The notes below the pieces were generated by a model. It was given only the letters and a program-made list of their open reading frames with translations, made no database searches and was not told where the DNA came from. Positions 12,689-58,929 of a DNA stretch of 64,000 bases are shown piece by piece (within the stretch, counting starts at the first letter, position 1; each line of letters begins with the position of its first letter). The position numbers were made by a program, and so were the translations under genes. This stretch comes from Thermoanaerobaculia bacterium. GTDB lineage: Bacteria > Acidobacteriota > Thermoanaerobaculia > UBA5066. The stretch lies in NCBI GenBank assembly GCA_963816185.1, contig CAWFJJ010000030.1, positions 288,001 through 352,000 of the forward strand. Reading direction: 5' to 3'.

Positions 12689-12942
12689 GCGTTTCTCGGG
12701 CTGCGCGGCAGCCTTCGCCGCAGGCGGGACCGGAGGAGCTTCGGTCTCGGGTGGGGCTCATTTGTTCCTCGGGACCGGGACACAACCCGGATTCTGGACG
12801 TGGGGGGGGCAAGTGCAAGTTCCGGACCCTCTCGGCGGAAAGGATTTTCAAGACGCGTAGTTTAGCGTCGCCGGCCGGGACCGTTGACTCCGGACAGCTC
12901 GAGTGTCCTATTGGTTTCAAAGCACGAGAAAAAGGAGATCCC

Positions 12943-42349: not shown

Positions 42350-45058
42350 TTATGACGGCGGGTACCACCCGCGGCCCTCGAACCAGTACGTCGTCTGCTT
42401 CGCGAACGGCGACCTCGGGTAACGCCGGTGCAGATGCTCGAAAGCGGCTTTCGACAGCGCCCGCGTCTGGGCGTCCGCGCAGCCCTCGCGCGTCGCGCGC
42501 ACGGCGCGCGCGAGAAACTCGGGCGCGCGCGGGTCATCGGGGTGGCGCTTCGTGAACGCGAGCGCTTCGCGGCAGAACCACGTGGCGGCCGCACCCTCTT
42601 TCACGAACGCGTCGACCTCCTTCGCCGCCTCTTCCCGCTCGGCCGCCGTGAGGAAGGAGGGCGGGGGCACCGGAGGCGGGGGCACCGGGGGCTTCTGAAC
42701 CGGCGCTGAGCACCACCAGGCGATCGAAAAATCGGCATCGAGCACCACGTACGGGCGCATCTGGGAGTCCTCGAGCAGGACGGCGAGGGCCGCGTCGACG
42801 CGCCACTCCGGCCCGCCGAGCCTCGGCGCGCCATTCACGAGCGCCGCCATGCGCTGCGCGACGTCCAGTCGGCCGAGGAGAATCGCGCGCGTAAGGACGA
42901 CCTTGCGAAGTTTCTCCCGGGCAACAGGTTCGAGCGAGGACTCCTCGAAGAACCTGACGAGGCGATCGAGCGGAAACCAGGTGTTCAGGACCGTCTGGCC
43001 CGCTTCGTCGAAGAGGTCCTCCTTCCCTGCAATCTCCCCGTAGAGGTAGGCCGCGCGCCGAGGAGCCGCCAAAATGAACTCCTCGAACGTCGTCGCGTTC
43101 CTGAGCTCGAGGTCGAGGAACAGGTTCGTCGCCGACGACCCTGCGGCCTGCGCCTTCGCGATCGTCTCCGCGACAATCTTCCGCGCTTCGGCGCGCCGAC
43201 CGGCTTTCGTCTCGAGGTCCGCGAGATGGTACGCAAAATGGACGCGGCCGGGCGCGTTCCGGGGGAGTCGCCGGACGGCTTCCGCGATCTCCGCATAGCG
43301 GGGATGATCCGGCGAGATCTTCGCGACGACGGCGGCGAGCCAGTGGTTCGCGCGCGTCCGTGTCCAGCCCTCGAGCGCCCGGTCGAGCCCGGACGGCCCC
43401 TTCGTCTGAAACGCCACGATCCAGCTCGTCAGGTCGTCCTGAGGGTCGGGCACGTAGCGTTCGCCTTGGGGGTCGCCCGGCCCCAGGCCGAGCACCCGGG
43501 CCAGGAGATCACGGTAGTGGACGAAGGAGACCGCGAACTCGGCCTCGTCCTGCGGCTTCAGGACTCGCGCGGCGGCGGAGGCCACATGCGAGTCCGGTTC
43601 GAGATGCAGCTCGACGAACCTGAGGAGGTCCTCCGACCAGCGCCGGAGCTCCGGGGTCTTTGCACCGTCCCGAACTGCGATGAACCGCGCGCGCGCCTCG
43701 GCGAGAAGCCGGAGGTAGTCTGTCTTCTCGCCGGAGCCGAGCGTCGCCTGCCGAAGAACTGCCCGTGCCGCGAGGTAAGGAGCGATCTCGCGCCAGGGAG
43801 AAGACGCATCGTTGGCGATCTCCTCGAAGCCTTTCTGCGCCAGTTCGAGGCGCCCCGCGTAGAAGCTCGCCGACGCGAGCTGGTAGGCGCGGTCGGCGCG
43901 GAGCGGCGCCGGAGCCGAGGCGGGGAGGTATTCCGGGAAAGAAGGTTTCTCGTCGGAGCAGTTCGCGAACACGGTCTCCTGCGCCGCGAGCCAGCCCCGC
44001 GTCTCGGGAGAGTCCTTGCCATACCGTCCGACGTAGCTTTGGAGCGTTTTCGCCGCGCGCTGGAAGGCATCGTCCCCGCAGTTCAAATAGGAGGAGTAGC
44101 CGACCCAGCGATCCTTGGCGACCCCCGGCCCTTTTGCCCCAGTCGCCGCCTCGCGTGTCGCCATCCACGCATCCGCACCGGGCGAGCCCGGTTCCTGCCC
44201 CTTCCAGTAGGCGAGCGCGGCAGCCTGCTCTCCAGGGCCGAGCGGGATGCCGGCGAGGTAGCGGTACGACACGACGAGGTAGGCACGGATCCACGTCGGC
44301 TGGAGGACGCCCAACTCGCCGGCGGCTTCGAAACGCGGTTCCGTCCACCCCACGGCCGAGAAGAGGTACACGCGGCCGAAGGTCCGCACGAAAGGTTCGT
44401 CCGTCGCGAGCCCCGTCGCCGCCCGGCACTCCGTCGCGAAGCCGTCCGCCGTCGCGCGTGCTCGGATCGCGGCGGCGTCGGGCCCCATCTGGAAGAGCAT
44501 CGGGACAACCTCGTCGACACGCAGGGCTTCGAGCCATCGGTCCCCCACGCACCACGACGCGAGCGCCGTGAACGACAGGCCGAGGCGCTGGTCGAGCCGC
44601 CCGCGCAGCTCGGTGAGCACGGCGCGGAAGAATTTGCGCTCGGAAAGAGTCGCGTCGCCGTCGATCTGGACGGCCGAGACACGCGGGAGGCGCGCAGCAG
44701 AGAGCGCAGCCGCGACGACGGCCTCGCGCTGCGAACCCGACAGGGCGGCCCGGCGACCGCGGGAGATTTCGACTCGCACCACGGCCATGACCGGAGTCGT
44801 CTCATCCACGAGGAGAGGCTGACGCCGGCGGACGACGTGCGCCGCGTCCCCCGAAAGCCGGACGGTCGCCGCGAGAAACGCGACGCCCGCGTCCCGTCCC
44901 GCCAGAAAGCGCAGGTCTTCGGGGCGCTCCCAGGCCCAGATTACGGTCCGAGGGAAGTCGCCGAACGGGGAACCTCCGAAGAGAGAACTTCTTAGAAAGA
45001 GAAGAGCGAGCGCCGCGGCGATCATGCTCCGCGGGAGTGCGAACGGGTTGCCAGCCAT
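42350..45058 (-). CDS. Exported DUF3142-like domain fused to a large helical hypothetical domain
   Basis: WAWERPEDLRFL, QIDGDA, TALASWC, DEVVPMLFQMG, then LGVLQPTWIRAYLVVSYRYL...LHRRYPRSPFAKQTTYWF. Confidence 0.7.
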   Translation of the reverse strand: MAGNPFALPRSMIAAALALLFLRSSLFGGSPFGDFPRTVIWAWERPEDLRFLAGRDAGVAFLAATVRLSGDAAHVVRRRQPLLVDETTPVMAVVRVEISRGRRAALSGSQREAVVAAALSAARLPRVSAVQIDGDATLSERKFFRAVLTELRGRLDQRLGLSFTALASWCVGDRWLEALRVDEVVPMLFQMGPDAAAIRARATADGFATECRAATGLATDEPFVRTFGRVYLFSAVGWTEPRFEAAGELGVLQPTWIRAYLVVSYRYLAGIPLGPGEQAAALAYWKGQEPGSPGADAWMATREAATGAKGPGVAKDRWVGYSSYLNCGDDAFQRAAKTLQSYVGRYGKDSPETRGWLAAQETVFANCSDEKPSFPEYLPASAPAPLRADRAYQLASASFYAGRLELAQKGFEEIANDASSPWREIAPYLAARAVLRQATLGSGEKTDYLRLLAEARARFIAVRDGAKTPELRRWSEDLLRFVELHLEPDSHVASAAARVLKPQDEAEFAVSFVHYRDLLARVLGLGPGDPQGERYVPDPQDDLTSWIVAFQTKGPSGLDRALEGWTRTRANHWLAAVVAKISPDHPRYAEIAEAVRRLPRNAPGRVHFAYHLADLETKAGRRAEARKIVAETIAKAQAAGSSATNLFLDLELRNATTFEEFILAAPRRAAYLYGEIAGKEDLFDEAGQTVLNTWFPLDRLVRFFEESSLEPVAREKLRKVVLTRAILLGRLDVAQRMAALVNGAPRLGGPEWRVDAALAVLLEDSQMRPYVVLDADFSIAWWCSAPVQKPPVPPPPVPPPSFLTAAEREEAAKEVDAFVKEGAAATWFCREALAFTKRHPDDPRAPEFLARAVRATREGCADAQTRALSKAAFEHLHRRYPRSPFAKQTTYWFEGRGWYPPS

Positions 45059-45155
45059 GTCTCCCGCATTCTCTTACCTTTCTACGCTCTTCTTGCTCCA
45101 TTCCGGATCCGCGCATCCGCCGAGGATCAGCGCCTTGCGGTTATCCTCAGGCGCA

Positions 45156-45782
45156 ATGCGCCTCGTCGCCGACAACCTCTCGCGCTCCTTCGGGCGCCGT
45201 GCCTTCGGGCCGGTCTCGTTCAGCGTCGAGACGGGTCGGGTCCTCGGCATCGCGGGAGAGAACGGGAGCGGAAAGACGACTTTGCTGAAGACCCTCGCAG
45301 GCTTGATTCGGCCAAGCGGAGGGCGCGCGAAGATCTTCTTAGATGATGAAAAGGCAGGGGATGGCCATGAGCCGCGCGATATTCCCTGGCGCATCGGGTG
45401 GGTGGCGCCGGATCTCGCCCTGTACGGAGAGCTGACGGCCGAGGAGAACCTGACCTTTTTCGAAAGGGTCCGCGGCCTCGTGTCGGATCCCGATCGGGTA
45501 CGCGCGCGGCTCGAGGGCGTCGGCCTACCGCTCGAATCCCATTCTCAGAAATCTCTCTCCTCTCTCTCCACGGGCCAACGCCAACGGGTCAAGCTCGCCT
45601 TTGCGACGCTGCACGAGCCCGACCTTCTCCTCCTCGACGAGCCGGGCGCGAATCTCGACGAGGCAGGGCGCTCCATCGTTCAGAAGGTCGTCGCGGGGCA
45701 GCGGATCCGGGGCATCACCGTGATCGCCTCGAACGACCCGCGCGATCTCGCGCTCTCGGATGAGAGAGTGACTCTCTCGTGA
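45156..45782 (+). CDS. ccmA: Heme exporter ATP-binding subunit CcmA
   Basis: GENGSGKTT, LTAEENL, LSTGQRQR, LLDEP; overlaps ccmB. Confidence 0.85.
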   Translation: MRLVADNLSRSFGRRAFGPVSFSVETGRVLGIAGENGSGKTTLLKTLAGLIRPSGGRAKIFLDDEKAGDGHEPRDIPWRIGWVAPDLALYGELTAEENLTFFERVRGLVSDPDRVRARLEGVGLPLESHSQKSLSSLSTGQRQRVKLAFATLHEPDLLLLDEPGANLDEAGRSIVQKVVAGQRIRGITVIASNDPRDLALSDERVTLS

Positions 45783-46480
45783 GCGCGCCGCGCGCGGCTG
45801 CCGGAACCGTGCCGGCGGCCATCGCCGTGCTCCGGCGGGAGCTCCTCGCGGAGTGGCGGACGCGCGTGGCCGTGAACTCGCTCTTCCTCTTCGCCTTCGC
45901 CGTGCTCGTCCTCGTCGCCTACGCCGTGGGCCCGACGCGCCTCTCGCCGGAAGACAGGCCCACCGTGAACGCCGTCCTCCTCTGGATCGTCCTTTTCTTC
46001 TCGGCGATGACGGGTCTCTCGCGCACGTTCGTTCACGAGGAGGACGCCGGCACCGCCGCGGCCCTGCGGCTGTCGGCGCCTCCATCCGGAGTCCTCCTCG
46101 GAAAGCTGCTCGCGAACGTGGCGCTGCTCGGCGCGGTGACCGCCTTCATCGTGCCTCTCTTCGTCGTCCTCATGGGCTTCGAGATCAAGGATCCGCCGCT
46201 CTTCGTCGTCCTGCTCCTGCTCGGGACATTCGGACTCGCTTCGGCGTCCACGTTCACGGCGGCTCTCGTTTCGAAGGCGAGCGCCAAAGGCGCGCTCTTC
46301 GCCGTGCTGGCGATCCCGCTCCTCCTCCCGCCTCTCGTCGGCGCCGTCCTCGCGACGCGGGTCGCGGCGACGCAGGCGGAATTCTCGGCCGGGCTCGATT
46401 TCGCGCGGCTCCTCGTCGCTTACGACGGCGTCGTCACGACGGCCTCTTTCCTGCTCTTCGACGCCGTCTGGCGCGAGTGA
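45779..46480 (+). CDS. ccmB: Heme exporter permease CcmB
   Basis: About six TM helices; RELLAEWRTR, RTFVHEEDAGT, LLGKLLAN, VLAIPLLLP. Confidence 0.88.
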   Translation: MSAPRAAAGTVPAAIAVLRRELLAEWRTRVAVNSLFLFAFAVLVLVAYAVGPTRLSPEDRPTVNAVLLWIVLFFSAMTGLSRTFVHEEDAGTAAALRLSAPPSGVLLGKLLANVALLGAVTAFIVPLFVVLMGFEIKDPPLFVVLLLLGTFGLASASTFTAALVSKASAKGALFAVLAIPLLLPPLVGAVLATRVAATQAEFSAGLDFARLLVAYDGVVTTASFLLFDAVWRE

Positions 46481-46483
46481 TCC

Positions 46484-47737
46484 GTGGCTGAAGCCGGCGC
46501 CCTTCCCGGCCTCCTCGAAGTGGCCACGATGGTCCACCTCGTTCTCGGGATGCTGCGCGCCGTCCTCGGCTCCCGCGGCACCAAGGCGAAGATCGCTTCC
46601 TTTCCGTCGTTCCTCGCGGCGACGACACCGTGGATCTTCCCGGGGACCGTCGCGGTGCTCGCCGTCGTCCTCGCCGACCTTTTCTGGTACGCCGCAGCCG
46701 GCTTTCTCCTGCGCGGCCGTGAAACCGCCCCGCCGGCGCGGCGCCCGACGCCGACGACGACGCTGCGCGTTCTCGGCGTGCGGCGCGAGACCGACGAGAT
46801 CCGGACCTTCCGGCTCGAGCGCCCGCCGGGCTTCGACTTCCAACCCGGGCAGTACCTTACGGTCGTCGTGCCCGTCGAGGGCAAGCTCGTCTCGCGCTGC
46901 TACTCGATCTGCTCTGCGCCGGACGAGACCGGGCACCTCGAGATCTCCGTGCGGCGGCAGGGCCTCGTCTCGGCGGCGCTGCACGAGAGCGTCCGCTCGG
47001 GGGGCGCGATCGCGGCGCGTAAGCCGGCCGGAAAATTCGTCTACCCGGGAGACAGCCAGCGGCCGATCGTCCTGCTCGGCGGCGGAGTCGGGATCACGCC
47101 GCTCCTCGCGATGCTCCGGCACGCGGCCGCCGCCGATCCCGGCCGTGAGGTCACGCTCCTCCTCTCCGTCCGCACGGGCATGCAGATTCCCTTCAAGGCC
47201 GAGCTCGACGACCTAGGCCGGCGCCCCGGACTGCGTGTCGTCGTCACGGCCACGCGGGGCGGCGCCGTGCCTCCCGTCCGTTCGGGCCGGCTGGACCTCG
47301 ACTTCGTGAAGCGCGAGATCCGCGACCCGGCAGCCTGCGTCTTCTGTATGTGCGGCCCCGGGGAGATGATCGAAGGTTTCAAGAAAGGCCTCCCGACGCT
47401 CGGCGTGCCGCCCGGACAGGTGCGAGCCGAGGCGTTCGAGGCAGCCAAGCACGGGCCGGGAGCGCACACGGCGGCCGGGCCCTTCACGCTCGAGCTGACG
47501 GTGAGCGGAAAGACCGTGATTGTCGCCCCCGGGGCGACGCTTCTCGAGGCGGCCGAGGCGGCGGGGGCTGACATCCCCTCGTCCTGCCGCGCCGGCGTCT
47601 GCCAGACCTGCCGGACCAGAGTGGTCTCGGGCGACGTCGACTGCCCCGCCGACTGCACCGACGACGCGGACCGGCGCGACGGCTGGATCTACCCGTGCGT
47701 CGCCTGGCCGAAGTCGAACTGCACGCTCGAAGCCTGA
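46484..47737 (+). CDS. FAD/NAD(P)H oxidoreductase with C-terminal 2Fe-2S ferredoxin and hydrophobic N-terminal extension
   Basis: FQPGQY, RCYSI, GGGVGITP, MCGP, then CRAGVCQTC...YPC. Confidence 0.88.
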   Translation: MAEAGALPGLLEVATMVHLVLGMLRAVLGSRGTKAKIASFPSFLAATTPWIFPGTVAVLAVVLADLFWYAAAGFLLRGRETAPPARRPTPTTTLRVLGVRRETDEIRTFRLERPPGFDFQPGQYLTVVVPVEGKLVSRCYSICSAPDETGHLEISVRRQGLVSAALHESVRSGGAIAARKPAGKFVYPGDSQRPIVLLGGGVGITPLLAMLRHAAAADPGREVTLLLSVRTGMQIPFKAELDDLGRRPGLRVVVTATRGGAVPPVRSGRLDLDFVKREIRDPAACVFCMCGPGEMIEGFKKGLPTLGVPPGQVRAEAFEAAKHGPGAHTAAGPFTLELTVSGKTVIVAPGATLLEAAEAAGADIPSSCRAGVCQTCRTRVVSGDVDCPADCTDDADRRDGWIYPCVAWPKSNCTLEA

Positions 47738-47746
47738 TTCGTGATC

Positions 47747-47761
47747 TGAGACACAGTCTCA
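47747..47761. promoter_or_regulatory. Palindrome TGAGAC-ACA-GTCTCA, candidate activator (bEBP) site
   Basis: Perfect 6-bp inverted repeat about 100 bp upstream of a sigma54-like element. Confidence 0.45.
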
Positions 47762-47856
47762 ACGTTAGGCTCGGACACTTTGAGATAAAGCCGAGCCGAG
47801 GCTCGGACTGTCCGGTACGTACGCTTCGGCGTCCCATTTGCCCATCGGCTGCATCT

Positions 47857-47874
47857 CGGGAACAGATCTTGCTT
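47857..47874 (+). promoter_or_regulatory. Putative sigma54 -24/-12 promoter
   Basis: GGAACAGATCTTGCT: GG at 47859-60, 10-nt spacer, GC at 47871-72, versus consensus TGGCACGNNNNTTGCW. Confidence 0.5.
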
Positions 47875-47924
47875 TTCGGGAGCAGATTCCGGATTTTTGA
47901 AAGGAGTACAGGGGATTGGACTAC

Positions 47925-48902
47925 GTGGCGAACCCGAAGAAGGGTACCCGTCGGATCTCCGCCTCGCCTCCAACATTCCTCGGTCCCTCCTCCGTCGTCC
48001 CGACGCTCACTGCCGCACGCGCCGCCTCCGCGAAGGTGAAGCGCGACGCCTGGCTTCCGATGGCCTCCCTCTCGCACGCCCTCGCCCTCGCATTCCTCGT
48101 GAGCCTCGGCCTCGTCGCCTTCGTGTTCGTGAAGCTGGGCGGATGGCAGTACTACTTCGCTCCGGAGGCGACACGCGGCTACATCCCGGCACACAAGCTC
48201 CTACACCCCGCCGGGCGCGCCGGCGAGATGTTCGGGATCGCGGGCCTCCTCATCATGTGCATGACCCTCGTCTACGCCGCGCGCAAGAAGTTCCGCGGCC
48301 TCTCGAAGATCGGCACGACGAAGACCTGGCTCGAGATCCACATCTTTTGCGGCCTCGTGGGTCCCGTGCTCGTGACGCTCCATACCGCGATGAAGTTCAA
48401 CGGCGTCGTCTCGATCGCGTACTGGTCGATGATCCTCGTCGTCCTGTCCGGCTTCATCGGGCGCTATCTCTACGTGCGGATCCCGAAGACGCTTCGCGGG
48501 ACCGAAATCTCTCTCGAGGAGCTCGACGCGCGCGCCATCGAGCTCAAGGGCCAGCTCGCGGCCGAAGGTCTTGCGACCGTCCTTCTACGCCGGATCGAGG
48601 AGCTCGAGCAAGGTTCACGCTCGGGGGGCTTCATCCTCGGGGACTTCAGGCTCGGACGAGGACTCGCTCAGCTCCACAAGGAGCTCGCTCAGGCCGGTAT
48701 TTCGCCTACGCGCCTCGTCGCCGCCGACCGGCTCATCCGCGAGCGGGTGACGCTTCTCAGGCGCATCGCGACGCTCGACACCTCCAAGAAGCTCTTCCAC
48801 CTCTGGCACGTCTTCCACAAGCCGTTCGTCTACGTGATGCTCGCGATCGCCGCGGTCCATGTCGCGGTCGCGCTGTACTTCGGCTACGCGGGCCACTGGT
48901 GA
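47925..48902 (+). CDS. Inner-membrane protein, putative di-heme cytochrome b (ferric-reductase-like TM domain)
   Basis: About five TM helices with two H-x13-H pairs (HIFCGLVGPVLVTLH and HKPFVYVMLAIAAVH); GTGA overlap with the cytochrome gene. Start uncertain. Confidence 0.7.
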   Translation: MANPKKGTRRISASPPTFLGPSSVVPTLTAARAASAKVKRDAWLPMASLSHALALAFLVSLGLVAFVFVKLGGWQYYFAPEATRGYIPAHKLLHPAGRAGEMFGIAGLLIMCMTLVYAARKKFRGLSKIGTTKTWLEIHIFCGLVGPVLVTLHTAMKFNGVVSIAYWSMILVVLSGFIGRYLYVRIPKTLRGTEISLEELDARAIELKGQLAAEGLATVLLRRIEELEQGSRSGGFILGDFRLGRGLAQLHKELAQAGISPTRLVAADRLIRERVTLLRRIATLDTSKKLFHLWHVFHKPFVYVMLAIAAVHVAVALYFGYAGHW

Positions 48903-51900
48903 GGGCACGCCTCCTCGGGCTCGCGTCGGTCCTCGCTTCGCTCGTGCTGGCGGCACACGCGGACGCGCAGGGCCTCGGGACCCTCGTCTCCCCTGGCAAG
49001 CTCTCGAAGGCGCACGCGAACCTCGAAGGCCTCGACAAGTGCCAGACCTGCCACGAGCCGGGCCGCCAGGTCACCGCCGCCAGGTGTCTCGCCTGCCACA
49101 AGCCCGTCGCCGAGCGCATCAAGGCGAAGAAGGGAGTCCACCGGAACGCCACGGGCGACGACTGCGCGAGCTGCCACGTCGAGCATGCAGGTCTCGACGG
49201 AGACCTCCGTCACTTCACGCCGAAGGGCTTCGACCACACGGGCGAGGCCGGGTTCGCTCTCGACGGCCTCCACGCGCCGCTCGAGTGCAATACCTGCCAC
49301 AAGACACGCTCGTACCTCGGCCTCTCCGCGTCGTGCGCCTCCTGCCACAAAGACGTCCACAACGGGACTCTCGGCGCAACGTGCCAGACGTGCCACGCGA
49401 CGAGCGTCGCCTTCAAGGACACGCGAAAGGGGTTCGACCACTCCCGGACGAAGTACCCGCTGACCGGCGCCCACACGAAGACTCCCTGCGAGAGCTGCCA
49501 CAACGTCAAGGGCGAGTACCGAATCGCGCGCTTCGCCGTCTGCGAGGGCTGCCACAAGAACCCCCACCAGCCGGCGCTCGGGACGTGCACGACGTGTCAC
49601 GTCACGACGAGCTTCAAGGAGCCCGCTGAGGGCCGGAGGTTCGACCACGCGAAGACGGGCTATCCGCTCCGCGGCCGCCACGCGAGCGTCGCCTGCCAGA
49701 CGTGCCACGTGAAGCCGGCGACGGTCGTGCGCCTCAGGTACGCGCGCTGCGCCGACTGCCACCAGGACGTCCACAAGGGCCTCTTCCCCCGCGAGGATTG
49801 CGCGTCCTGCCACACGGAGAGCGGGTTTGCGCCCGCGAAATTCGATCATGGGACGCGCACGAAGTTCCCCCTCGACGGCAAGCACGCGGCCACGCCTTGC
49901 CTTGCCTGCCATAAGCAGGCGGGAGCACAGGTGCGTGCTCCCCGCGCGCAGCGGGTCGTCGACTTCCGCGGCGCGAAGGCGGCGTGCGCCTCCTGCCACA
50001 AAGACGCCCACAAGGGGAAGCTCGGCTCGAGCTGCCAGACCTGTCACGGAACGACCTCCTTCAAGGTTTCGGAGTTCCGGCACCCGCGCCAGCCCGAGTT
50101 CTTCGAGGGCGCGCATGCGGGCGTCGCGTGCGAGAAGTGCCATCTCCCGGAGCCGGCGTCCCGAACCGACCTCGCGAAGGGCGCCGCGGCACCCGCGGCC
50201 GCGCGGCAGTACAGAGGCGTGTCGTTCCAGTGCGCGAGCTGCCACAAGGACCCGCATCTCGGGCAGGTGGGTCCGGACTGCGCGGCGTGCCACAGCCTCG
50301 CGACGAAGGGCTACAAGCCCGACCTCTTCGTCCACACGCGCGCGAAGTTCGCGCTCACGGGCAAACATGAGACGGTCCCTTGCGCGAAGTGCCACGCGAA
50401 GGAGACCGGGACGTTCCCCGCGGGCAAAGGCACGGCGGTCCGCCTCACGGGCCTCTCGACGGAGTGCCGAACCTGCCACAAGGACCCGCACCTCGGGCAG
50501 CTTTCGCCGCGCTGCGAGACGTGCCACGACGCCGCATCGTTCCGGATCGCGAAGTTCACGCATCCCGCGAAGAAGGAGACCGAGGGCTTCTTCGTCGGCA
50601 AGCATGCGGCGATCGCATGCGCCGAGTGCCACCCGAAGGAGACGATGGATTACCCCGCGGGCCGCGGAACCGCCGTTCAATATTCGGTCCCGGTCGATTG
50701 CGCGCACTGCCACGAGGACGCGCACAAGGGCGCCTTGGGGCGCGACTGCGCGTCCTGCCACAACGCGAACCAGTGGCGGACCGCCTCGCGCGCCTTTCAC
50801 AAAACAGCCGCCTTCTCGCTCGAGGGCAAGCACATCTCGGTCCCGTGCGCGTCCTGCCACCTGAAAGGCGTCCTCAAGGGCACGCCCACGGGCTGCTACG
50901 ACTGCCATTGGATCCGCAAGCCCGACGACCGCTTCAAGACGAAGCTCGGGAGCGACTGCCAGACGTGCCACCGGCCGATCGGCTGGACCGCCGTCACGTG
51001 GAGCCACACGTCCGCGACGGGATTCACGCTCGAGACGCCCCACAAGACGCTCGACTGCGAGTCCTGCCACAAGAGTCAGGTCTTCCCGGGGACGCCCCGG
51101 GACTGCTACTCCTGCCATCGGGCGGACTACGAGCGCGTCCAGAACCCGAACCACGTCGCAGGCGGCTTCCCGACGGATTGCACCGGTTGCCACAAACCGA
51201 CTGCCCCGACGTGGCGGGGCGCGACGTTCACCCACGCGACCTTCCCGCTCGCCGGCGTCCACGCGACGCAGGCCTGCGCCTCGTGCCACGTGAACAACAT
51301 CTACAAGGGAACGCCGCGCGACTGTTTCTCCTGCCATCGGACGGACTACCAGAATTCGAAAAACCCGCCCCACGCTGCCGCCGCGTTCCCGACCACGTGC
51401 GACTCGTGCCACAAATTCTCCGATCCGAACTGGCAGGGCGCGGGTTTCAACCACAACTCGGCGACGACGTTCCCGCTGGTCGGGCCGCACGTCACGGCGC
51501 CGTGCGCAAGCTGCCACGTCAACGGCAACTACACGACCGTCCCGACGACCTGCTACGGCTGCCACCAGAAGGACTCGGCGGGCGCCACGACTCCGGTGAA
51601 CCATTCCGGCCTGCCGACGACGTGCGAGAGCTGCCACAAGAACACGGACACGACCTGGCTGCTGGCGACGGCCTTCAACCACTCGACGTACTTCGCGCTG
51701 GCCGGCGCCCACGTCACCGCAGCTTGCGCCCAGTGCCACACGAACGGCAACTTCACGACCCTGCAGTCGACCCCGACGCCTTGCGCGACCTGCCACCAGA
51801 ACGACTACAACACGGCGAAGACGCCCGTGGACCACGTCGCGTCAGGCTTCTCGACCACCTGCGACTCGTGCCACAAGTTCTCCGACACGACGTGGATGCA

Positions 51901-53931
51901 GGCGACGTTCAGCCATACGACCTTCCCGCTGGTCGGCGTGCACGCGACGACGCCCTGCGCGACGTGCCACAACCCCCCGTATGCCCCTTCAGCCAACAAC
52001 TACACGACCGTCCCGACGACCTGCTACGGCTGCCACCTGAAGGACTCGGCGGGCGCCACGACTCCGGTGAACCATTCCGGCCTGCCGACGACGTGCGATT
52101 CCTGCCACAAGAACACGGACGCGACCTGGTCGCTGGCCACGGCCTTCAACCACTCGACGTACTTCGCGCTGGCCGGCGCCCACGTCACCGCAGCTTGCGC
52201 CCAGTGCCACACGAACGGCAACTTCACGACCCTGCAGTCGACCCCGACGCCTTGCGCGACCTGCCACCAGAACGACTACAACACCGCGAAGACGCCCGTG
52301 GACCACGTCGCGTCAGGCTTCCCGACCAACTGCGACTCGTGCCACAAGTTCTCCGACACGACGTGGATGCAGGCGACGTTCAGCCATACGACCTTCCCGC
52401 TGGTCGGCGTGCACGCGACGACCGCCTGCGCGAGCTGCCACGTCAACAACAACTACACGACCGTCGCGACGACCTGCTACGGCTGCCACCAGAAGGACTC
52501 GGCGGGCGCCACGACTCCGGTGAACCATTCCGGCCTGCCGACGACGTGCGATTCCTGCCACAAGAACACGGACGCGACCTGGTCGCTGGCCACGGCATTC
52601 AACCACTCGACGTACTTCGCGCTGGCCGGCGCCCACGTCACGGCGCAATGCGCCCAGTGCCACACGAGCGGCAACTTCGTCAGCGTGCCCAAGAGCCCGT
52701 GCTCGGCGTGCCACCAGAACGACTACAACAACGCGAAAACGCCGGTGAACCACATCGCGTCGAGCTTCCCGACCACCTGCGACTCGTGCCACAAGTTCTC
52801 CGACGCGACGTGGATGCAGGCGACGTTCAGCCATACGACCTTCCCTCTCGTCGGCGTACACGCGACGACCGCCTGCGCGAGCTGCCACGTCAACAACAAC
52901 TACACGACCGTCGCGACAACCTGTTACGGCTGCCACCAGAAGGACTCGGCGGGCGCTACGACTCCGGTGAACCATTCCGGCCTGCCGACGACGTGCGACA
53001 GCTGCCACAAGAACACGGACGCCACCTGGCTCTTGGCCACGGCCTTCAACCACTCGACGTACTTCGCGCTGGCCGGAGCCCACGTCACGGCGGCCTGCAC
53101 CCAGTGCCACACGAGCGGGAACTACGTCAGCGTGCCCAAGAGCCCGTGCTCGGCGTGTCATCAGACGGACTACAACAACGCCAAGACGCCCGTGAACCAC
53201 GTCGCGTCGAGCTTCCCGACCACCTGCGACTCGTGCCACAAGTTCTCCGACGCGACGTGGATGCAGGCGACGTTCAGCCATACGACCTTCCCGCTGGTCG
53301 GCGTGCACGCGACGACGCCCTGCGCGAGCTGCCACGTCGCCAACAACTACTCCACCGTCCCGACGACCTGTTACGGCTGCCACCAGAAGGACTCGGCGGG
53401 CGCCACGACTCCGGTGAACCATTCCGGCTTGCCGACGACGTGCGACAGCTGCCACAAGAACTCGGACACCACCTGGCTGCTGGCGACGGCCTTCAACCAC
53501 TCGGCATACTTCGCGCTCGCTGGCGCCCATGTCACGGCGGCCTGCACCCAGTGCCACAACCCCCGAAGCGCGAAAACTACGTCAGCGTGCCCACGAGCCC
53601 GTGCTCGGCGTGCCACCTCCCCGCCTACCAGACCGCGACGACTCCCGTGAACCACATCGCGGCGGCCTTCCCCACGACCTGCGACACGTGCCACAAGTTC
53701 TCCGACACGACGTGGCTGCAGGGCGTCTTCAACCACACGTACTTCCCGCTGGTCAGCAATCACAACGTGCCGTGCAACCAGTGCCACACCACCGCCGGCA
53801 CCTACGCGGTCTTCAACTGCATCAGCTGCCACACGGCCGCCAAGACAAACGGGGATCACTCGGGCGTCAAGGGCTATGTGTGGGCGTCGACGGCCTGCTA
53901 CTCCTGCCACCCGAACGGACGAGGCGGCTGA
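48899..53931 (+). CDS. Giant multiheme cytochrome c, 66 CxxCH, about 1677 aa (one frameshift at 53560-53564)
   Basis: GTG start, Sec signal ending ADA-Q; 61 CxxCH counted in the 47897..53650 frame plus 5 in the 50380..53931 frame; C-terminus CYSCHPNGRGG. Confidence 0.92.
51467..53745 (+). repeat. Five tandem near-identical hexaheme-coding repeats (447-471 bp)
   Basis: GGACTCGGCGGGCGC recurs at 51571, 52042, 52495, 52942 and 53389; boundaries approximate. Confidence 0.92.
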
Positions 53932-55217
53932 TGCGCCGCCGCCTCGCGATTCTCGCGGCCCTCCTAGTCCTGAGGGCCCCGGCCGCGGCGCAGTCCGCCC
54001 TCGACCTCGGCCGCATCGCCGTGTTCGGCCAGGTCCTGCGGTCGAAGAACGACGACGGGACGACGACGGCCTACAACGAGCTGACCGCTTCGGTCACGCT
54101 CCACACGCCGCCGCGCGACACAGACGGGGTCGAGTTCTCGATCGACGCGCGCGGCTCTGAGTACCCGTCCGTCGCAAACCGCGATCCGCACCTGACCGTC
54201 TATGACGCCTGGGTCGGCGGGCATCTCGCGGGCGGCCACCTGGCCGTGCGGCTCGGTCAGATGTACCTGAACGACCTCGGTGCCCTTGGAGGCGTGGGCG
54301 GTGCCGCGCTCGAAGGCCGAACCGGTAAGGTCCGGTTCGGCCTCTTTGGCGGCCTCGAGCCGAAGGGTTTCGACGCGGGCTACGTCGCGGATGTCAGGAA
54401 GGGCGGTGCGTACGTCGCTTATGACGGGGAGCGCGGCTGGCACGACGCCCTCGGTTTCGTCACGATCCGCGACCAGGGACTCGTTGAGCGGAATGTCCTC
54501 TCGACGACGAACTTCATCCCGGTCGGCAAAGAGTTCTTTCTCTACCAGGCCGCCGAGTACGATCTGACCGGGCCGGGAGGCGTCGGGAGCGGCGGCCTCG
54601 CCTACGTCTTCGCGACGGCCCGCTGGGCCCCTGCCAGGACGTTCGAGATCCAGGGCCAGTACCAGCACGGGCGCTCGATCGACGCGCGCTCGATCACGCA
54701 GGACCAGCTCGCGGGCCGCCCGGTGGACGCGAAGAGCCTTCAAGGTTTTCTCTTCGACTCGATGGGCGGGCGCGCGACCGTGGAGTTTGCCCGCGGCTGG
54801 CGGGTCTGGGGCGGCTACTACCAGGACAAGAACAATCGCGACGACATCGCGTCGAACCGCTGGCAGTTCGGCCTGTCCGCGATGAACGTCCTCGGGTCGG
54901 GGTTCGATGCATTCGCCTCGGACAACCGGACGATCCGCCCGGGAAGCTCCAGCTACGACGCGTGGTACTTCTCTCTCGGGCGCAGCCTCGGCTCCCGTCT
55001 CTACCTGACCGTGGACTACTCGACCTCGCTGTCCGTGCTGCAGCTGACCGATTCGGGGGGCCTCACGGTCGTGAACCGGCCCTCCTCGAGACGCTACAGC
55101 CTCTCGGGAACGTTCAACGTCACTCGCGCGTTCTCCGTCTTCGTGACGGCCGAGCAGCTCGTCGACGACACGTCGAAGGAGAACCGGGGCCTCTTGGGCC
55201 TATCGTTCCGTTTTTGA
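53931..55217 (+). CDS. Outer-membrane beta-barrel, putative porin partner of the cytochrome
   Basis: TGATG coupling to the cytochrome stop; signal peptide; alternating aromatic/Gly beta-strands; C-terminal GLSFRF. Confidence 0.8.
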   Translation: MRRRLAILAALLVLRAPAAAQSALDLGRIAVFGQVLRSKNDDGTTTAYNELTASVTLHTPPRDTDGVEFSIDARGSEYPSVANRDPHLTVYDAWVGGHLAGGHLAVRLGQMYLNDLGALGGVGGAALEGRTGKVRFGLFGGLEPKGFDAGYVADVRKGGAYVAYDGERGWHDALGFVTIRDQGLVERNVLSTTNFIPVGKEFFLYQAAEYDLTGPGGVGSGGLAYVFATARWAPARTFEIQGQYQHGRSIDARSITQDQLAGRPVDAKSLQGFLFDSMGGRATVEFARGWRVWGGYYQDKNNRDDIASNRWQFGLSAMNVLGSGFDAFASDNRTIRPGSSSYDAWYFSLGRSLGSRLYLTVDYSTSLSVLQLTDSGGLTVVNRPSSRRYSLSGTFNVTRAFSVFVTAEQLVDDTSKENRGLLGLSFRF

Positions 55218-55244
55218 TACGGAGTCTCTGAAGCAAGCAGACTA

Positions 55245-55946
55245 ATGGGGAGCGGGCATCCGGGCGTTATGATCCTCGCCGTGAAGACCCTCGGTTTCGC
55301 CGGCAAGTGGTTCCTGGGACTCGGGATGGCTGTGATTTGCTGGGCCGCCTTCCTCTGGGCCCGTCCCGCCCAGAACTTCGTCGGCGAGTCCTCGAGGATC
55401 GTCTTCTTCCACGTGCCGATGGCGTGGGTATCCACGCTCGCTTTCTTCCTCGCCGCCTGGCATTCGGCCGTCTATCTGAAGAACCGCCGGATCGAGAACG
55501 ACGACGCCGCGGCCGGCGCGGCGCGGCTCGGTTTCGTGTTCTGCGTTCTGGCCACGGTCACCGGCTCGATCTTCGCCCGCGTGATGTGGAACTCGTACTG
55601 GAACTGGGACCCCCGCGAGACGTCCATCGTGCTCCTGCTCCTCGTGTACGGCGCGTATCTCGGCCTGAGAGGCGCGCTCGAGGACCCCGAACGTCGCGCG
55701 ACGCTCTCGGCGGCGTACGCGCTCGTGGCGGTCGTGACCGTTCCTTTCCTGACTTTCGCCGTCCCCCGCATGTACCAGTCGCTGCATCCCGACACCGTCC
55801 TCAACGCGCGAGGAAAGGTCGAAATGTCCGCGGACATCCAAACCGTTTTCTTCTCCTCCATGGTGGCTTTCATGATCTTGTTCTTCTGGATGTGGAATCT
55901 CGACCGGCGGGTGTCCCGTATCGTCCGCGAGAGGGCGACGGCGTGA
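55245..55946 (+). CDS. ccmC: Heme exporter / cytochrome c biogenesis protein CcmC
   Basis: FFHVPMAW, WNSYWNWDPRET (WWD motif), SLHP; start may be 55269 or 55281. Confidence 0.9.
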   Translation: MGSGHPGVMILAVKTLGFAGKWFLGLGMAVICWAAFLWARPAQNFVGESSRIVFFHVPMAWVSTLAFFLAAWHSAVYLKNRRIENDDAAAGAARLGFVFCVLATVTGSIFARVMWNSYWNWDPRETSIVLLLLVYGAYLGLRGALEDPERRATLSAAYALVAVVTVPFLTFAVPRMYQSLHPDTVLNARGKVEMSADIQTVFFSSMVAFMILFFWMWNLDRRVSRIVRERATA

Positions 55947-56071
55947 GCGGGGCTCTCGGGTACGTCGCGGCGGTCAACATCGTGATCTGGGCCGGAATCT
56001 TCGGCTACCTCGTCTATCTCGACCGGAAGGTCCGGGCCGCCTCGGGGCCCGGGCAGGAGAAACCCCGATGA
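55943..56071 (+). CDS. ccmD: CcmD-like small membrane protein (42 aa)
   Basis: MSGALGYVAAVNIVIWAGIFGYLVYLDRKV..., overlapping the ccmC stop and the ccmE start. Confidence 0.75.
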   Translation: MSGALGYVAAVNIVIWAGIFGYLVYLDRKVRAASGPGQEKPR

Positions 56072-56466
56072 AACGTGCTTACTGGGCCGGCGCCCTCCTC
56101 GTCGTCGGCTTTCTCGCCCTCGGTCTGTCCACGTTCACGCGCTCGATGACGCCTTACGTCTCCTTCGCCGAGGCGAAGGCCGCGCCGCGCACGGTCCAGG
56201 TGATGGGCGCCCTCGAAAAGGGCACGTCGCGTTACGACACAGCCTCGAAAACGCTCTATTTCACGCTCCTCGACCCGAAATCGCACGAGTCGATTCCCGT
56301 CTCCTACACGGACGTGAAGCCCGCGAATTTCGAGGACGCCGTGTCCATCGTGGCGATCGGCCGGTACGAGGGCGGCGTCTTCGCCGCAGAGAAGCTTCTC
56401 GTCAAGTGCCCGTCCAAGTACCAGGGCGAGGAAATCGAAAAACAGTACGGCGCCAAAAAGGCCTGA
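56068..56466 (+). CDS. ccmE: Heme chaperone CcmE, CxxxY variant
   Basis: TM anchor, KPANFE, LLVKCPSKY. Confidence 0.9.
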   Translation: MKRAYWAGALLVVGFLALGLSTFTRSMTPYVSFAEAKAAPRTVQVMGALEKGTSRYDTASKTLYFTLLDPKSHESIPVSYTDVKPANFEDAVSIVAIGRYEGGVFAAEKLLVKCPSKYQGEEIEKQYGAKKA

Positions 56467-56475
56467 GGACACCCC

Positions 56476-58929
56476 ATGAACAATCTCCCCGGAATTCTCG
56501 GCTTCGCGCCGGGCACGCTCGCGATTTGGGCGGCCATGCTCTTCGGCGTCACGTGCATGCTCGCCTACCTGCGTTCGATGCGCAGCACGGGATTCGCAGC
56601 CGGGGATTTTCTTAGAAAGGGTAAGAGGGGCTCCCGTGCGGTCGCAGCAACGGCCGATCCGGGCGACCTATTACCATTCGAAGAAAATTCTCTTTCTCCT
56701 AATCTCTTCTTCGCCCGGCGCCTGTATTACGCCTACGTCTTCTCGGTCCTTCTCGCGTCGTTCCTCCTTCTGACGCGGCTCCTCTCGCACGACTTCCGCA
56801 TCTCATACGTGGCGTCGTACTCGGGGCGCGACCTGCCGTTCTATTACCTCTTCTCGACGTTCTGGGCAGGGCAGGAGGGCTCGTTCCTGCTCTGGCTCTT
56901 CTGGGGCGCGCTCATCGGGCTGTTCGTTCTGAGGTCCGCGAAGGAGCAGGAAGCTCCCGTGATGGTGATCTACGTCGCGTCGTTCCTCGGAATCGTCGCG
57001 ATCCTCGTCAAGCAGTCGCCGTTCCGGTTCCTCGCGCAGATCCCGCCGGACGGCCAGGGCCTGAACCCGCTCCTGCAGGACCCGTGGATGGTCATCCACC
57101 CGCCGGTCATGTTCTCTGGGTTCGCGTCCCTCTCGGTGCCGTTCGCGTTCGCGATCGGCGCGCTCTGGATGAAGCGCTGGGACGGCTGGGTCGTCCGCGC
57201 CATGCCGTGGGCGCTCTTCACGTTCGTCACGCTCGGCACCGCGATCCTGATGGGCGGGTATTGGGCCTACAAGACGCTCGGCTGGGGCGGCTACTGGGGC
57301 TGGGATCCGGTCGAGAACACGTCCCTCGTGCCATGGCTCGCGACGGTCGCGCTCGTGCACGGAATGTTCCTCCAGAAGATGCGCGCCAAGCACCGCAAGA
57401 TCAACATCATTCTCGCGATCCTCGCTTTCTGCTGCATCCTGTACGGCACGTTCCTGACTCGCTCCGGAGTTCTCGCGGACTTCTCCGTTCACTCCTTCAT
57501 CGATCTCGGGATCACCGGGTGGCTCGTCGGGATCATCGTCGTCTTCCTCGTCGGCGGCCTCGCCCTCCTCGCATGGCGCTGGAAGGAGATCCCGGTCGTC
57601 TCCGACCTGGACGCGACGACCGGCAAAGAGAAGGAAGAGCCGTTCCTGTCACGGTCGGTCCTCTTCATCCTCTCCGTGACGCTCTTCTGCGCCTCGGGCC
57701 TCGTCATCCTCCTCGGGACCTCGGCTCCGATCCTGACGCGTGTCCTGGGCAAGCCCTCGCAGGTCGCGACGAGCTTCTACAACGTCACGCACCGGCCGAT
57801 CGCGGGTCTCATGGCCCTGCTTCTCCTTCTCGTGCCGTACCTGTCATGGCGCGGCGAGAACGGAAAGGGCGTCCTGAGAAAGGCCCTCGTCCCGGGCGCC
57901 GTGGGACTCCTCAGCGTCGGAGTCTTCTTCTCGGCGGGCGTGCGCGGGGCGGGCGACCTCCTGATCCTCGCTCTCGCGGTGGCCGGGTTCGTCGCGAACG
58001 CCGAGACCGCGGTCCTCTTCGTGAGGCGCAGGGCCGTCAAGACCATGGGCGGATATCTCGCGCACATCGGCATGTCGATCATGCTCGTGGGCATCCTCAT
58101 CTCGGGCGTCTACGAGAAGAAGACGACGGTGAACCTCTTCAAGAACCAGCCGGTCACCGTCGGGAGCAACACCTTCACGTTCACGCGCACCGTCTTCGTC
58201 ACGGACAGCGGCGAGGTGAAGCGTTTCGAGGAGCTCAACGCGGCCGACCCCTCCGACCGCCGCGCCAAACAGGCGATGGAGGTCGAGGTTTCGTCGCCCG
58301 GGCGCAGCGTCTGGAAGGCCTATCCGAAGCTCTACACGAACACGCGCACGAACCAGATGATGGCGAACCCCGACGTGAAGTCGTCGCCGCTCATGGACCT
58401 CTACGTCTCCCCGCAGGCTTACGACCCGGGGCGATCCGCGCACATCGAGGGCACGACGCTCGCCCTGAGGAAGGGCGAGTCGAAGACCGTCGACGGCGTC
58501 AAGGTGAAGTTCCTCGACTTTTCCGCCGACCGCTCGCAGGTGTCGTCGGACCGGCCGCGAGTCACCGTGACGGGCAATTTCCTCGTGACGACCGCCGAAG
58601 CCTCCGAGGAGAAGACCGCCCGGCTCGTCATGTACTTCGGCGGAGCGTCGGCGGAGTCCGCGACGGAGTCACCGGAGACGCCTCTTCCCGGAAAAGGCCG
58701 CTTGAAGATTCTCAAGGTGTCGCCGAACGAAGGCACATGCGAGATCGAGCTCCTCGGTGTCGCTCCGGGCGGAGACCTCAAGCCGGCGACGGCCGAGACC
58801 TTGTCCGTCGACCTCACGACGAAGCCGCTGATCTCCCTCGTGTGGGGAGGCTTCTACGTGATGATGGCGGGCGGCCTCCTGGCGCTCGTGCGCCGCGCCC
58901 GCGATTCGCGCCAGGCGGCGATCGCCTAG
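56476..58929 (+). CDS. ccmF: Cytochrome c heme lyase CcmF
   Basis: WAGQEGSFLLW, GLNPLLQDPWMVIHPP, WGGYWGWDPVEN, SVHSF, YLAHIG, KPLISLVWGG. Confidence 0.93.
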   Translation: MNNLPGILGFAPGTLAIWAAMLFGVTCMLAYLRSMRSTGFAAGDFLRKGKRGSRAVAATADPGDLLPFEENSLSPNLFFARRLYYAYVFSVLLASFLLLTRLLSHDFRISYVASYSGRDLPFYYLFSTFWAGQEGSFLLWLFWGALIGLFVLRSAKEQEAPVMVIYVASFLGIVAILVKQSPFRFLAQIPPDGQGLNPLLQDPWMVIHPPVMFSGFASLSVPFAFAIGALWMKRWDGWVVRAMPWALFTFVTLGTAILMGGYWAYKTLGWGGYWGWDPVENTSLVPWLATVALVHGMFLQKMRAKHRKINIILAILAFCCILYGTFLTRSGVLADFSVHSFIDLGITGWLVGIIVVFLVGGLALLAWRWKEIPVVSDLDATTGKEKEEPFLSRSVLFILSVTLFCASGLVILLGTSAPILTRVLGKPSQVATSFYNVTHRPIAGLMALLLLLVPYLSWRGENGKGVLRKALVPGAVGLLSVGVFFSAGVRGAGDLLILALAVAGFVANAETAVLFVRRRAVKTMGGYLAHIGMSIMLVGILISGVYEKKTTVNLFKNQPVTVGSNTFTFTRTVFVTDSGEVKRFEELNAADPSDRRAKQAMEVEVSSPGRSVWKAYPKLYTNTRTNQMMANPDVKSSPLMDLYVSPQAYDPGRSAHIEGTTLALRKGESKTVDGVKVKFLDFSADRSQVSSDRPRVTVTGNFLVTTAEASEEKTARLVMYFGGASAESATESPETPLPGKGRLKILKVSPNEGTCEIELLGVAPGGDLKPATAETLSVDLTTKPLISLVWGGFYVMMAGGLLALVRRARDSRQAAIA

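Follow-up and report, generated by a model that had tools for sequence, protein, structure and literature searches.

The subject of this study is a module of four genes on a 64,000-nucleotide (nt) stretch of DNA from a Thermoanaerobaculia bacterium (Acidobacteriota; assembly GCA_963816185.1, contig CAWFJJ010000030.1, positions 288,001 to 352,000 of the forward strand), which is called the window throughout. A flavoprotein reductase, an inner-membrane protein, a giant multihaem cytochrome and an outer-membrane β-barrel are encoded there inside a System I haem-ligation (ccm) operon. The first-pass annotation did not recognize this layout as that of a characterized system; it matches the porin-cytochrome cluster type PCC3 predicted by He et al. 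(He, Barco, Emerson & Roden 2017, Front Microbiol, PMC5566968), which is itself without experimental characterization.

All coordinates refer to the window and, unless stated otherwise, to its plus strand; residues of the membrane protein are numbered from an alternative ATG start at 48060. A single co-oriented string of genes extends from ccmA to ccmF (45,024-58,929) and contains the module. The first module gene (46484..47737) starts 3 nt past the ccmB stop and encodes a membrane-anchored, FNR-like reductase with FAD_binding_6, NAD_binding_1 and C-terminal plant-type 2Fe-2S (Fer2) domains. A spacer of 178 nt (47738..47915) with a weak terminator-like hairpin at 47875-47893 separates it from the gene for a PCC3-type inner-membrane protein with five helices, a putative di-haem cytochrome b as judged by its motifs and an AlphaFold2 model. 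This second gene ends at 48902 and starts either with TTG at 47916, 9 nt downstream of a Shine-Dalgarno sequence (AAAGGAG), or with ATG at 48060. The spacer folds no more stably than shuffled sequences (z -0.29); no sigma-70-like promoters were found in it, terminator-like sites in the spacer scan were not clearly above shuffles (13 versus 8.5 +/- 2.5), and the window contains no Rfam family. The GTG start of the cytochrome gene at 48899 overlaps the stop codon of the membrane protein gene (GTGA). Its main frame (48899..53650) encodes a signal peptide, 61 CxxCH motifs and 16 Cytochrome_C7 stretches (E 2.3e-73), and is followed in a shifted frame by a conserved C-terminal module with five haems (53575..53931), the stop codon of which overlaps the start of the barrel gene (53931..55217; TGATG). 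Of the two overlaps behind the translational coupling that had been proposed for the last three genes, the first is confirmed and the second exists only in the shifted cytochrome frame.

Upstream of the module, ccmA for the ABC ATPase (45024..45782; PF00005 ABC_tran, E 1.2e-27), the true start of which is probably near 45156 because tblastn alignments with relatives begin only at residue 44, is followed by ccmB (45779..46480; PF03379 CcmB, E 4.8e-22). Downstream, the string continues with ccmC (55245..55946; PF01578, E 2.9e-27), a ccmD-like small open reading frame of 42 amino acids (aa) (55943..56071; PF20077 CcmD_alt, E 9e-4), ccmE (56068..56466), the product of which is the sole CcmE match in the genome, and ccmF (56476..58929; PF01578 and PF16327). 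The System I order ccmA, B, C, D, E, F is complete, with ccmD scoring below its cut-off, and the placement of four co-oriented genes between ccmAB and ccmCDEF is borne out by domain matches and coordinates. The string is flanked by a divergent gene on the minus strand (42350-45058) for a 902-aa protein with a weak DUF3142 match (E 9.8e-5, below cut-off), the adjacency of which to the module is not kept in relatives, and, directly after ccmF, by a gene for an M13-family metallopeptidase (58959-61001, plus strand; Peptidase_M13_N, E 6.6e-129) that is apparently unrelated to the module.

Conservation of the module and its place in the ccm operon

When a profile of the membrane protein was run against one-genome-per-species collections, 413 encoding stretches were retrieved, the best 80 loci of which were examined. 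The reductase gene is located directly upstream of the membrane protein gene in 80/80 cases, with a median gap of 99 nt, and an open reading frame with at least four CxxCH motifs lies downstream in 77/80; two of the three misses end at a contig end and one is a true exception. Where at least 7.5 kb of downstream sequence is present, a barrel gene is found in 45 of 52 loci, and one of the seven misses has a barrel just past the flank. No other neighbouring gene is conserved around the module in the 80 loci. According to their titles, they stem from Thermoanaerobaculia, Vicinamibacterales/Vicinamibacteria, Holophagales/Holophagae, Terriglobia, Candidatus Sulfomarinibacteraceae and unclassified Acidobacteriota, with one 'uncultured bacterium' and three entries that look mislabelled. 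Recurrence of the gene order in 80 independent loci is more than chance. The synteny in relatives on which the first-pass annotation had staked its proposal is thus given, and sequence comparison supports the four genes as a conserved functional unit.

Two observations from this survey stand by themselves. Three loci (L068, L071, L085) carry the acidobacterial-type module although they are titled as Bifidobacterium breve or Bifidobacteriaceae metagenome-assembled genomes, and these bins are probably mislabelled. Loci L040, L049, L051, L068 and L096 represent a subtype in which reductase and membrane protein are accompanied by just one cytochrome, with 23 haems, and no barrel is recognizable within 8-10 kb downstream. 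Named relatives of the membrane protein, reached through Atlas neighbours and through a profile built on the 23 representatives that diverge most, belong to Acidobacteria/Terriglobia and Gemmatimonadota only.

The ccm genes, on the other hand, flank only one of the 80 loci, G008. Of 24 genomes from the same genus that were searched with the barrel, 12 gave a match, as did 3 of 16 genomes of the order's other families. Nine of eleven long loci fetched from the genus, each from a different genome, have cytochrome and barrel between ccmAB and ccmCEF, and the remaining two (L016, L026) are extra copies without ccm flanks in one genome that is 53% complete. In five of five barrel-negative genomes of the genus that were checked, ccmA-B-C-E-F are contiguous, and the module in this genus is therefore a cassette that is present or absent between ccmB and ccmC. 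The three matching genomes from other families have all four module genes in synteny, at 40-58% identity, and no ccm genes occur in the 19.5 kb fetched. The idea that the system comes packaged with its own haem-ligation genes is accordingly overstated: the nesting is a genus-specific insertion of the cassette and not part of the system.

Within the genus, the inner-membrane side of the module varies. Besides the window, only G008 of the eleven long loci keeps reductase and membrane protein beside cytochrome and barrel, a count that leaves out L014, which is ridden with frameshifts, and the two copies without ccm flanks. In four loci (L013, L015, L019 and L022) the gap from ccmB to the cytochrome gene is too short for another gene, and four others have a gene for a cytochrome b of the Ni_hydr_CYTB type (PF01292, E 1.2e-11) in this place, which stands beside the reductase pair in G008 and replaces it in L017, L018 and L020. 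These arrangements suggest that the inner-membrane input modules are interchangeable. The Ni_hydr_CYTB-type gene occupies 12361-13233 on the minus strand of L017 and is also listed for L018, L020, L021 and L016. In L014 (G006:C4) even ccmC and ccmF contain frameshifts, a pattern that resembles errors of assembly quality rather than biology.

The reductase and the inner-membrane protein

The reductase carries the motifs RxYS, GxGxxP and CG in addition to the 2Fe-2S motif C-x4-C-x2-C...C. The latter is kept in 68 of 72 homologues and N-terminal hydrophobic segments are present in 60 of 72, so that the assignment of the first gene to a membrane-tethered FAD/NAD(P)H/2Fe-2S reductase, supported by the Pfam domains as well, stands. 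Matches in NCBIfam are to PaaE- and NADH-oxidoreductase-like families and all remain far under the equivalog cut-offs. The N-terminal segments (46484-46720 and the corresponding regions of homologues) contain conserved histidine motifs in most homologues, TTxH in the first and HxxW in the second, and the second histidine is lost in the genus of the window; these residues could be ligands of a further haem or a contact to the membrane protein.

The membrane protein, 280-328 aa in length with five hydrophobic segments, bears the motifs W90x3H94x13H108, S130GxxG134 and W249x3H253x13H267. The residues H94, H108, H250, H253 and H267 as well as the W and SGxxG positions are invariant in 34 aligned homologues, which confirms the earlier description as a protein with two H-x13-H helices. 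The family is large, comprising 4061 representative clusters at 50% identity. Of the best 150 representatives listed among these 4061 matches, 109 are full-length, and 94 of the 109 contain both motifs; all of 327 homologues are annotated as 'hypothetical'. In the AlphaFold2 model (predicted local distance difference test, pLDDT, 80.5), a helical insert of about 100 residues precedes the last of five long membrane helices. If oriented by the positive-inside rule, H94 and H253 would be placed toward the cytoplasm and H108 and H267 toward the periplasm, a geometry appropriate for a transmembrane relay of two haems, and the invariant histidines argue for binding of haem b. No Pfam family scores above its cut-off. 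Among the 34 members, weak matches below cut-off are to Ferric_reduct PF01794 (24), DUF4405 (24) and Ni_hydr_CYTB (20); the score of the window protein against Ferric_reduct is 14.4 bits compared with a gathering cut-off of 28, and the best member reaches E 8.4e-4. The protein may be distantly related to ferric reductases.

Additional information comes from a paralogue that is about 30% identical in the membrane domain and is encoded in the genome G003 (L027 6216-8456, G003:C7) away from cytochrome genes. It is a single protein of 746 aa, in which an N-terminal helix, a 4Fe-4S dicluster domain, a Pyr_redox_3/2 flavoprotein and a domain resembling the membrane protein follow one another. The architecture was examined in G003 alone, and open frames of about 745 aa lie at the matches in several other barrel-positive genomes. 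Matches to such a paralogue were obtained in 9 of 12 barrel-positive and 0 of 12 barrel-negative genomes of the genus, which are kin and hence no independent test. The fused paralogue and the reductase gene adjoining that of the membrane protein in 80/80 loci indicate a cytoplasmic pyridine-nucleotide partner.

The giant cytochrome and its barrel

Comparison with Vicinamibacterales loci, in which two cytochrome genes are present, revealed that the giant cytochrome is a fusion of two proteins encoded separately elsewhere. Residues 2-621 with 24 haems share 47-51% identity with the product of a separate 24-haem gene, and from about residue 611 onward the protein shares 45-46% identity with that of the second cytochrome gene. 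The two parts also differ in composition: charged residues make up 21-24% of residues 2-621 and 7% beyond, where Thr, Ser, Ala and Gly account for 42-43%. A fused cytochrome fits the idea that one polypeptide serves periplasmic as well as outer roles, while the threading of the porin and the outward projection that had been proposed along with it remain conjectural. Single frames with at least 45 motifs are found in at least 19 of the 80 loci. In some relatives from the genus the cytochrome is divided at another point into two genes, and the second of them carries a signal peptide of its own. A reading of in-frame stops in relatives' cytochromes as selenocysteine or readthrough was rejected, as TAG is found among these stops as well as TGA, and a fresh start codon with a further signal peptide comes after them.

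About 25 residues are available per haem, and size variation is driven by tandem repeats. In the window, a 447-nt unit (149 aa, six haems) is repeated 5.0 times with 89% matches (51464..53754). The number of CxxCH motifs per barrel-bearing locus is about 36-63, relatives in the genus have up to 72, and one single frame has 137. This last cytochrome belongs to the same four-gene module in another acidobacterial genome (L116, G041:C24:86000-101500, reverse strand; also L048 8434-18480), where an uninterrupted frame of 3434 codons from stop to stop contains 17.2 copies of a 441-nt unit with 88% matches.

The cytochrome of the window had been described as an exported protein with 66 haems. The signal peptide is present and 66 is the total of CxxCH motifs, but they are distributed over two frames: 61 in the main frame (48899..53650) and five in another (53551-53931), so that 66 haems are attained only if reading passes through a frameshift at about 53,560-53,575 (site 53555..53580). 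The last ~30 codons of the first frame are out of frame after the break (CTQCH, followed by an out-of-frame tail). Five relatives encode NPPYAPSANN at the orthologous position, where the window has 10 nt fewer. What would be lost through a real frameshift is a conserved part of the cytochrome. The last ~118 residues with five haems have 28 invariant columns among 27 aligned sequences, and this module directly precedes the barrel gene in all 56 loci in which our script detected it.

Whether a real mutation or an error of assembly or consensus lies behind the break bears on this copy only, and it is compatible with any reading of the system. The cassette may be decaying in this organism, the cytochrome lacking its barrel-proximal module and the conduit being inactive; we regard this as a serious possibility, though one that falls somewhat short of an even chance. 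It is favoured by the net difference of 10 nt from five relatives at one spot together with several neighbouring substitutions, by the dispensability of a cassette that is absent from 12 of the 24 genus genomes searched and leaves ccmABCEF contiguous, and by the rearrangement of the cytochrome gene in relatives through splitting into two genes. On the other hand, the break falls in the last copy of the 89%-identical array, where errors of assembly or consensus are expected, the remaining genes of the operon are all intact, and the many frameshifts in G006 show that errors of the assembly type do occur in these data. A search for public sequencing runs containing this sequence listed six DNA runs and no RNA run. 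When contigs of four public runs were aligned with 53300-54300, no near-identical contig spanned the frameshift, the closest record starting at 53580; one divergent public contig is 8 nt shorter at the break and may derive from a paralogous repeat or a relative. The chances that this copy is intact are about even.

The barrel has a signal peptide and ends in phenylalanine (...SFRF), as claimed before, and its AlphaFold2 model (pLDDT 78.3) has 22 strands. Searches for known families gave no match at E <= 0.01 in Pfam or E <= 0.1 in NCBIfam, MtrB and PioB included. The best structural matches are 22-strand TonB-dependent transporters aligned without their plug, such as Cir (Z 17.3, 340 residues, root mean square deviation 4.6); the solved Mtr barrel 6r2q_B aligns with Z 13.6, and Foldseek found generic barrels only, namely the ushers FimD and PapC and AlgE, with template modelling scores of about 0.5. 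Barrels of TonB-dependent transporters enclose a globular plug of roughly 150 residues, and the lumen of the modelled plug-less barrel should therefore be large enough for the haem module of ~118 residues. The concern that the barrel might be too narrow is not borne out by this model. A complex prediction with barrel residues 23-428, the C-terminal five-haem module and four haems scored 0.22 and 0.15 against a mark of 0.32 and carries no weight either way. The most conserved stretch of the barrel, residues 252-272 (~54684-54746), is a loop with pLDDT <50, at which D251, R253, I255, G262, D266 and G272 are invariant. In the model, this loop is a candidate for the contact with the cytochrome.

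Relation to known systems and the possible route of electrons

As described by He et al. (2017, PMC5566968), PCC3 combines a porin with two cytochromes and an inner-membrane protein. One cytochrome is periplasmic with a median of 21 haems (21-27). The second, 'extracellular' one is repeat-rich, rich in Thr, Ser, Ala and Gly and has very few residues per haem; its haems number 34 in the median and 85 at most, a maximum that was the highest of which these authors knew. The membrane protein is ~300 aa long and has five helices, the fourth with SGxxG and the third and fifth each with Wx3Hx13H. PCC3 was described in Proteobacteria, and the model has electrons move inward, from Fe(II) to quinone. 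The membrane protein in the window has this length and number of helices and exactly contains SGxxG and two Wx3Hx13H motifs. The periplasmic cytochrome corresponds to the N-terminal 24-haem part of the giant cytochrome, here fused, and the repeat-rich one agrees with the remainder in composition and in the possession of an array, its extracellular location being a prediction; the adjacent porin gene has its counterpart in the gene for the 22-strand barrel directly downstream. The likeness to the proteobacterial PCC3 proteins is one of motif signature and not of alignment.

There are also clear differences. The two PCC3 cytochromes are encoded by separate genes and form one polypeptide here, and neither a reductase gene nor Acidobacteria appear in the main text of He et al. 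(2017, PMC5566968) or in a part of its supplement, a part in which the terms 'Acidobacteria', 'oxidoreductase', 'ferredoxin' and 'FAD' do not occur. The Sideroxydans CL21 study (2025) reports the order extracellular multihaem cytochrome, porin, periplasmic multihaem cytochrome, membrane protein. What is new here are the constant NAD(P)H/FAD/2Fe-2S partner, the fusion of the PCC3 cytochromes, the plug-less 22-strand barrel and the nesting in ccm. Our literature search found no paper on a module of reductase, membrane protein, cytochrome and barrel in Acidobacteriota; a 2026 preprint on peat Acidobacteriota (10.64898/2026.05.27.727921) deals with other clusters and cytochromes with 8-13 haems.

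Resemblance to other systems is partial. MtrCAB of Shewanella, MtoAB and PioAB likewise have a multihaem cytochrome inserted in an outer-membrane barrel and transfer electrons across the envelope. However, the barrel in the window does not match the MtrB and PioB families, the MtrB barrel has 26 strands, the Mtr, Mto and Pio cytochromes have ten haems as opposed to 61+5, and MtrCAB receives its electrons from the quinol oxidase CymA and not from a flavoprotein. In NOX, FRE and MsrQ-Fre, electrons pass from NAD(P)H via flavin to two stacked b haems bound by H-x13-H pairs on helices 3 and 5, and the ferric reductase/NOX signature of two H-x13(12)-H pairs on these helices is present in the membrane protein. 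The differences from these enzymes are that the flavoprotein in the window is a separate polypeptide of the FAD_binding_6/NAD_binding_1 type with an extra 2Fe-2S domain, the fused paralogue having a different type of flavoprotein, and that the membrane protein has five helices with the long insert before the last and a multihaem cytochrome as its presumed acceptor. GSU1996-type c7 polymers of Geobacter are also built from tandem Cytochrome_C7 units, of which the window cytochrome has 16 stretches; they contain 12 haems, compared with 61+5. The NCBIfam nanowire_3heme domain reaches 18.4 bits against this cytochrome (cut-off 40), and matches to Geobacter Ext families are weak and of the ExtN/ExtO type only (53-54 bits, cut-off 200). 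Another porin-cytochrome cluster that includes an FAD/NAD(P) oxidoreductase and a membrane protein called 'ferric reductase-like' is the ptdABCDEFG operon (Elbon, Stewart & Glass, bioRxiv 10.1101/2023.11.21.568154), but it has seven genes, its cytochromes are small (5, 4 and 10 haems), and it is found in marine Proteobacteria, Nitrospirales and Planctomycetes. By the descriptions alone, ptd resembles PCC4 of He et al., who report that the membrane proteins of PCC3 and PCC4 have no significant sequence homology (He et al. 2017, PMC5566968).

The reading that we prefer, to which we assign roughly an even chance, is that the module is of the PCC3 porin-cytochrome type, receives electrons from the cytoplasm through an input of its own and passes them outward. 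In the route that we infer, with its protein-protein contacts, direction of flow and exposure at the surface, cytoplasmic NAD(P)H would be oxidized by the membrane-anchored FAD/2Fe-2S reductase, and its 2Fe-2S cluster would reduce the haem b on the cytoplasmic side of the five-helix protein (H94, H253). The electron would then cross the membrane to the second haem b (H108, H267), enter the cytochrome in the periplasm through its N-terminal part with 24 haems, travel along the repeat part of the same polypeptide and arrive at the C-terminal five-haem module seated in the plug-less 22-strand barrel, where haem would be exposed to outside acceptors such as Fe(III)/Mn(IV) minerals or humics. As such a route bypasses quinones, it would dispose of reducing equivalents rather than conserve energy. 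Through its insertion between ccmB and ccmC, the module would be transcribed together with the System I operon for haem ligation, the only one in the cell. A bolder version, which we consider improbable though worth stating, has a single haem wire (66 haems; 137 in the relative) thread the barrel and extend for tens of nm, charged from NAD(P)H via a split pair of NOX-like flavoprotein and di-haem b protein, with neither quinones nor polymerization of subunits.

Several points weigh against the NAD(P)H-driven outward route. The outer part does not require NAD(P)H input, because most relatives in the genus keep cytochrome and barrel without an adjacent input pair. The Pfam matches of the membrane protein are all under curated cut-offs, Foldseek against the PDB gave nothing at E <= 0.001 for its model (best E 0.47, top rows cytochrome b561/Dcytb), and the wide VIA search retrieved generic helical matches only (Z <= 10). 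How a haem-loaded polypeptide enters or crosses the barrel has no explanation, and the frameshift, if real, would deprive the cytochrome of its conserved C-terminal module and uncouple its gene from that of the barrel. The genome also encodes haem-copper oxidases (three homologues of COX1) and complex I subunits (homologues of NuoD at three loci) and is not dependent on such a sink. Finally, PCC3 itself is called functionally unverified in later papers (Hoover et al. 2023; Sideroxydans CL21 study 2025), and the published proposal for PCC3 and PCC4 is a quinone-linked, inward route (He et al. 2017, PMC5566968).

This last point leads to the rival that survives best for the system as a whole. 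The same hardware could be coupled to quinones and/or work inward from an Fe(II)-like donor, with the membrane protein reducing quinone and the reductase in an accessory role, for example re-reducing or poising the b haems. That a quinone-type Ni_hydr_CYTB cytochrome b fills the same slot in relatives, and that the membrane protein itself weakly matches this family in 20 of 34 members, fits such a scheme. It does not readily account for an NAD(P)H-type flavoprotein that adjoins the membrane protein in every locus of the wide survey and is fused to its paralogue, no quinone-site motif was identified, and established bioenergetics stand in its way, as the transfer of electrons from Fe(II) to NAD(P)+ is strongly uphill and their inward movement opposes the membrane potential. 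We consider it unlikely, at about the same level as the extended wire. Less probable still is a periplasm-confined system, in which the giant cytochrome is an electron store or a reductase for soluble substrates, the barrel is their diffusion pore and nothing reaches the surface: apart from the Sec signal peptide neither a lipobox nor a secretion signal is visible in the cytochrome, the 'extracellular' location of its PCC3 counterpart is a prediction only (He et al. 2017, PMC5566968) and a role as capacitor is raised by Hoover et al. (2023), but an extended wire of at least 66 haems would, at the observed residue-to-haem ratio, be far longer than the periplasm as commonly dimensioned, and a barrel of TonB-transporter size that is plug-less and always encoded directly after the conserved cytochrome C-terminal module suggests a protein-filled pore over an open one.

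The importance of the instance in the window is lowered by the prior description of PCC3 and by the frameshift. The module as such is common, with 413 stretches in the one-genome-per-species collections and 4061 clusters for the membrane protein. Acidobacteriota are among the most abundant soil bacteria, and their electron exchange with minerals and humics is little understood. The constant reductase partner and the fused paralogue make the question of the PCC3 input directly testable by biochemistry, and the series of CxxCH counts across loci is a natural series for asking what the number of haems does. If the preferred outward route is correct, it would constitute a quinone-independent path from NAD(P)H to the outside and supply the cytoplasmic end for the PCC3 model of 2017; if the extended wire were real as well, it would be a third way to build a microbial 'nanowire', and one that is widespread in soil Acidobacteriota.

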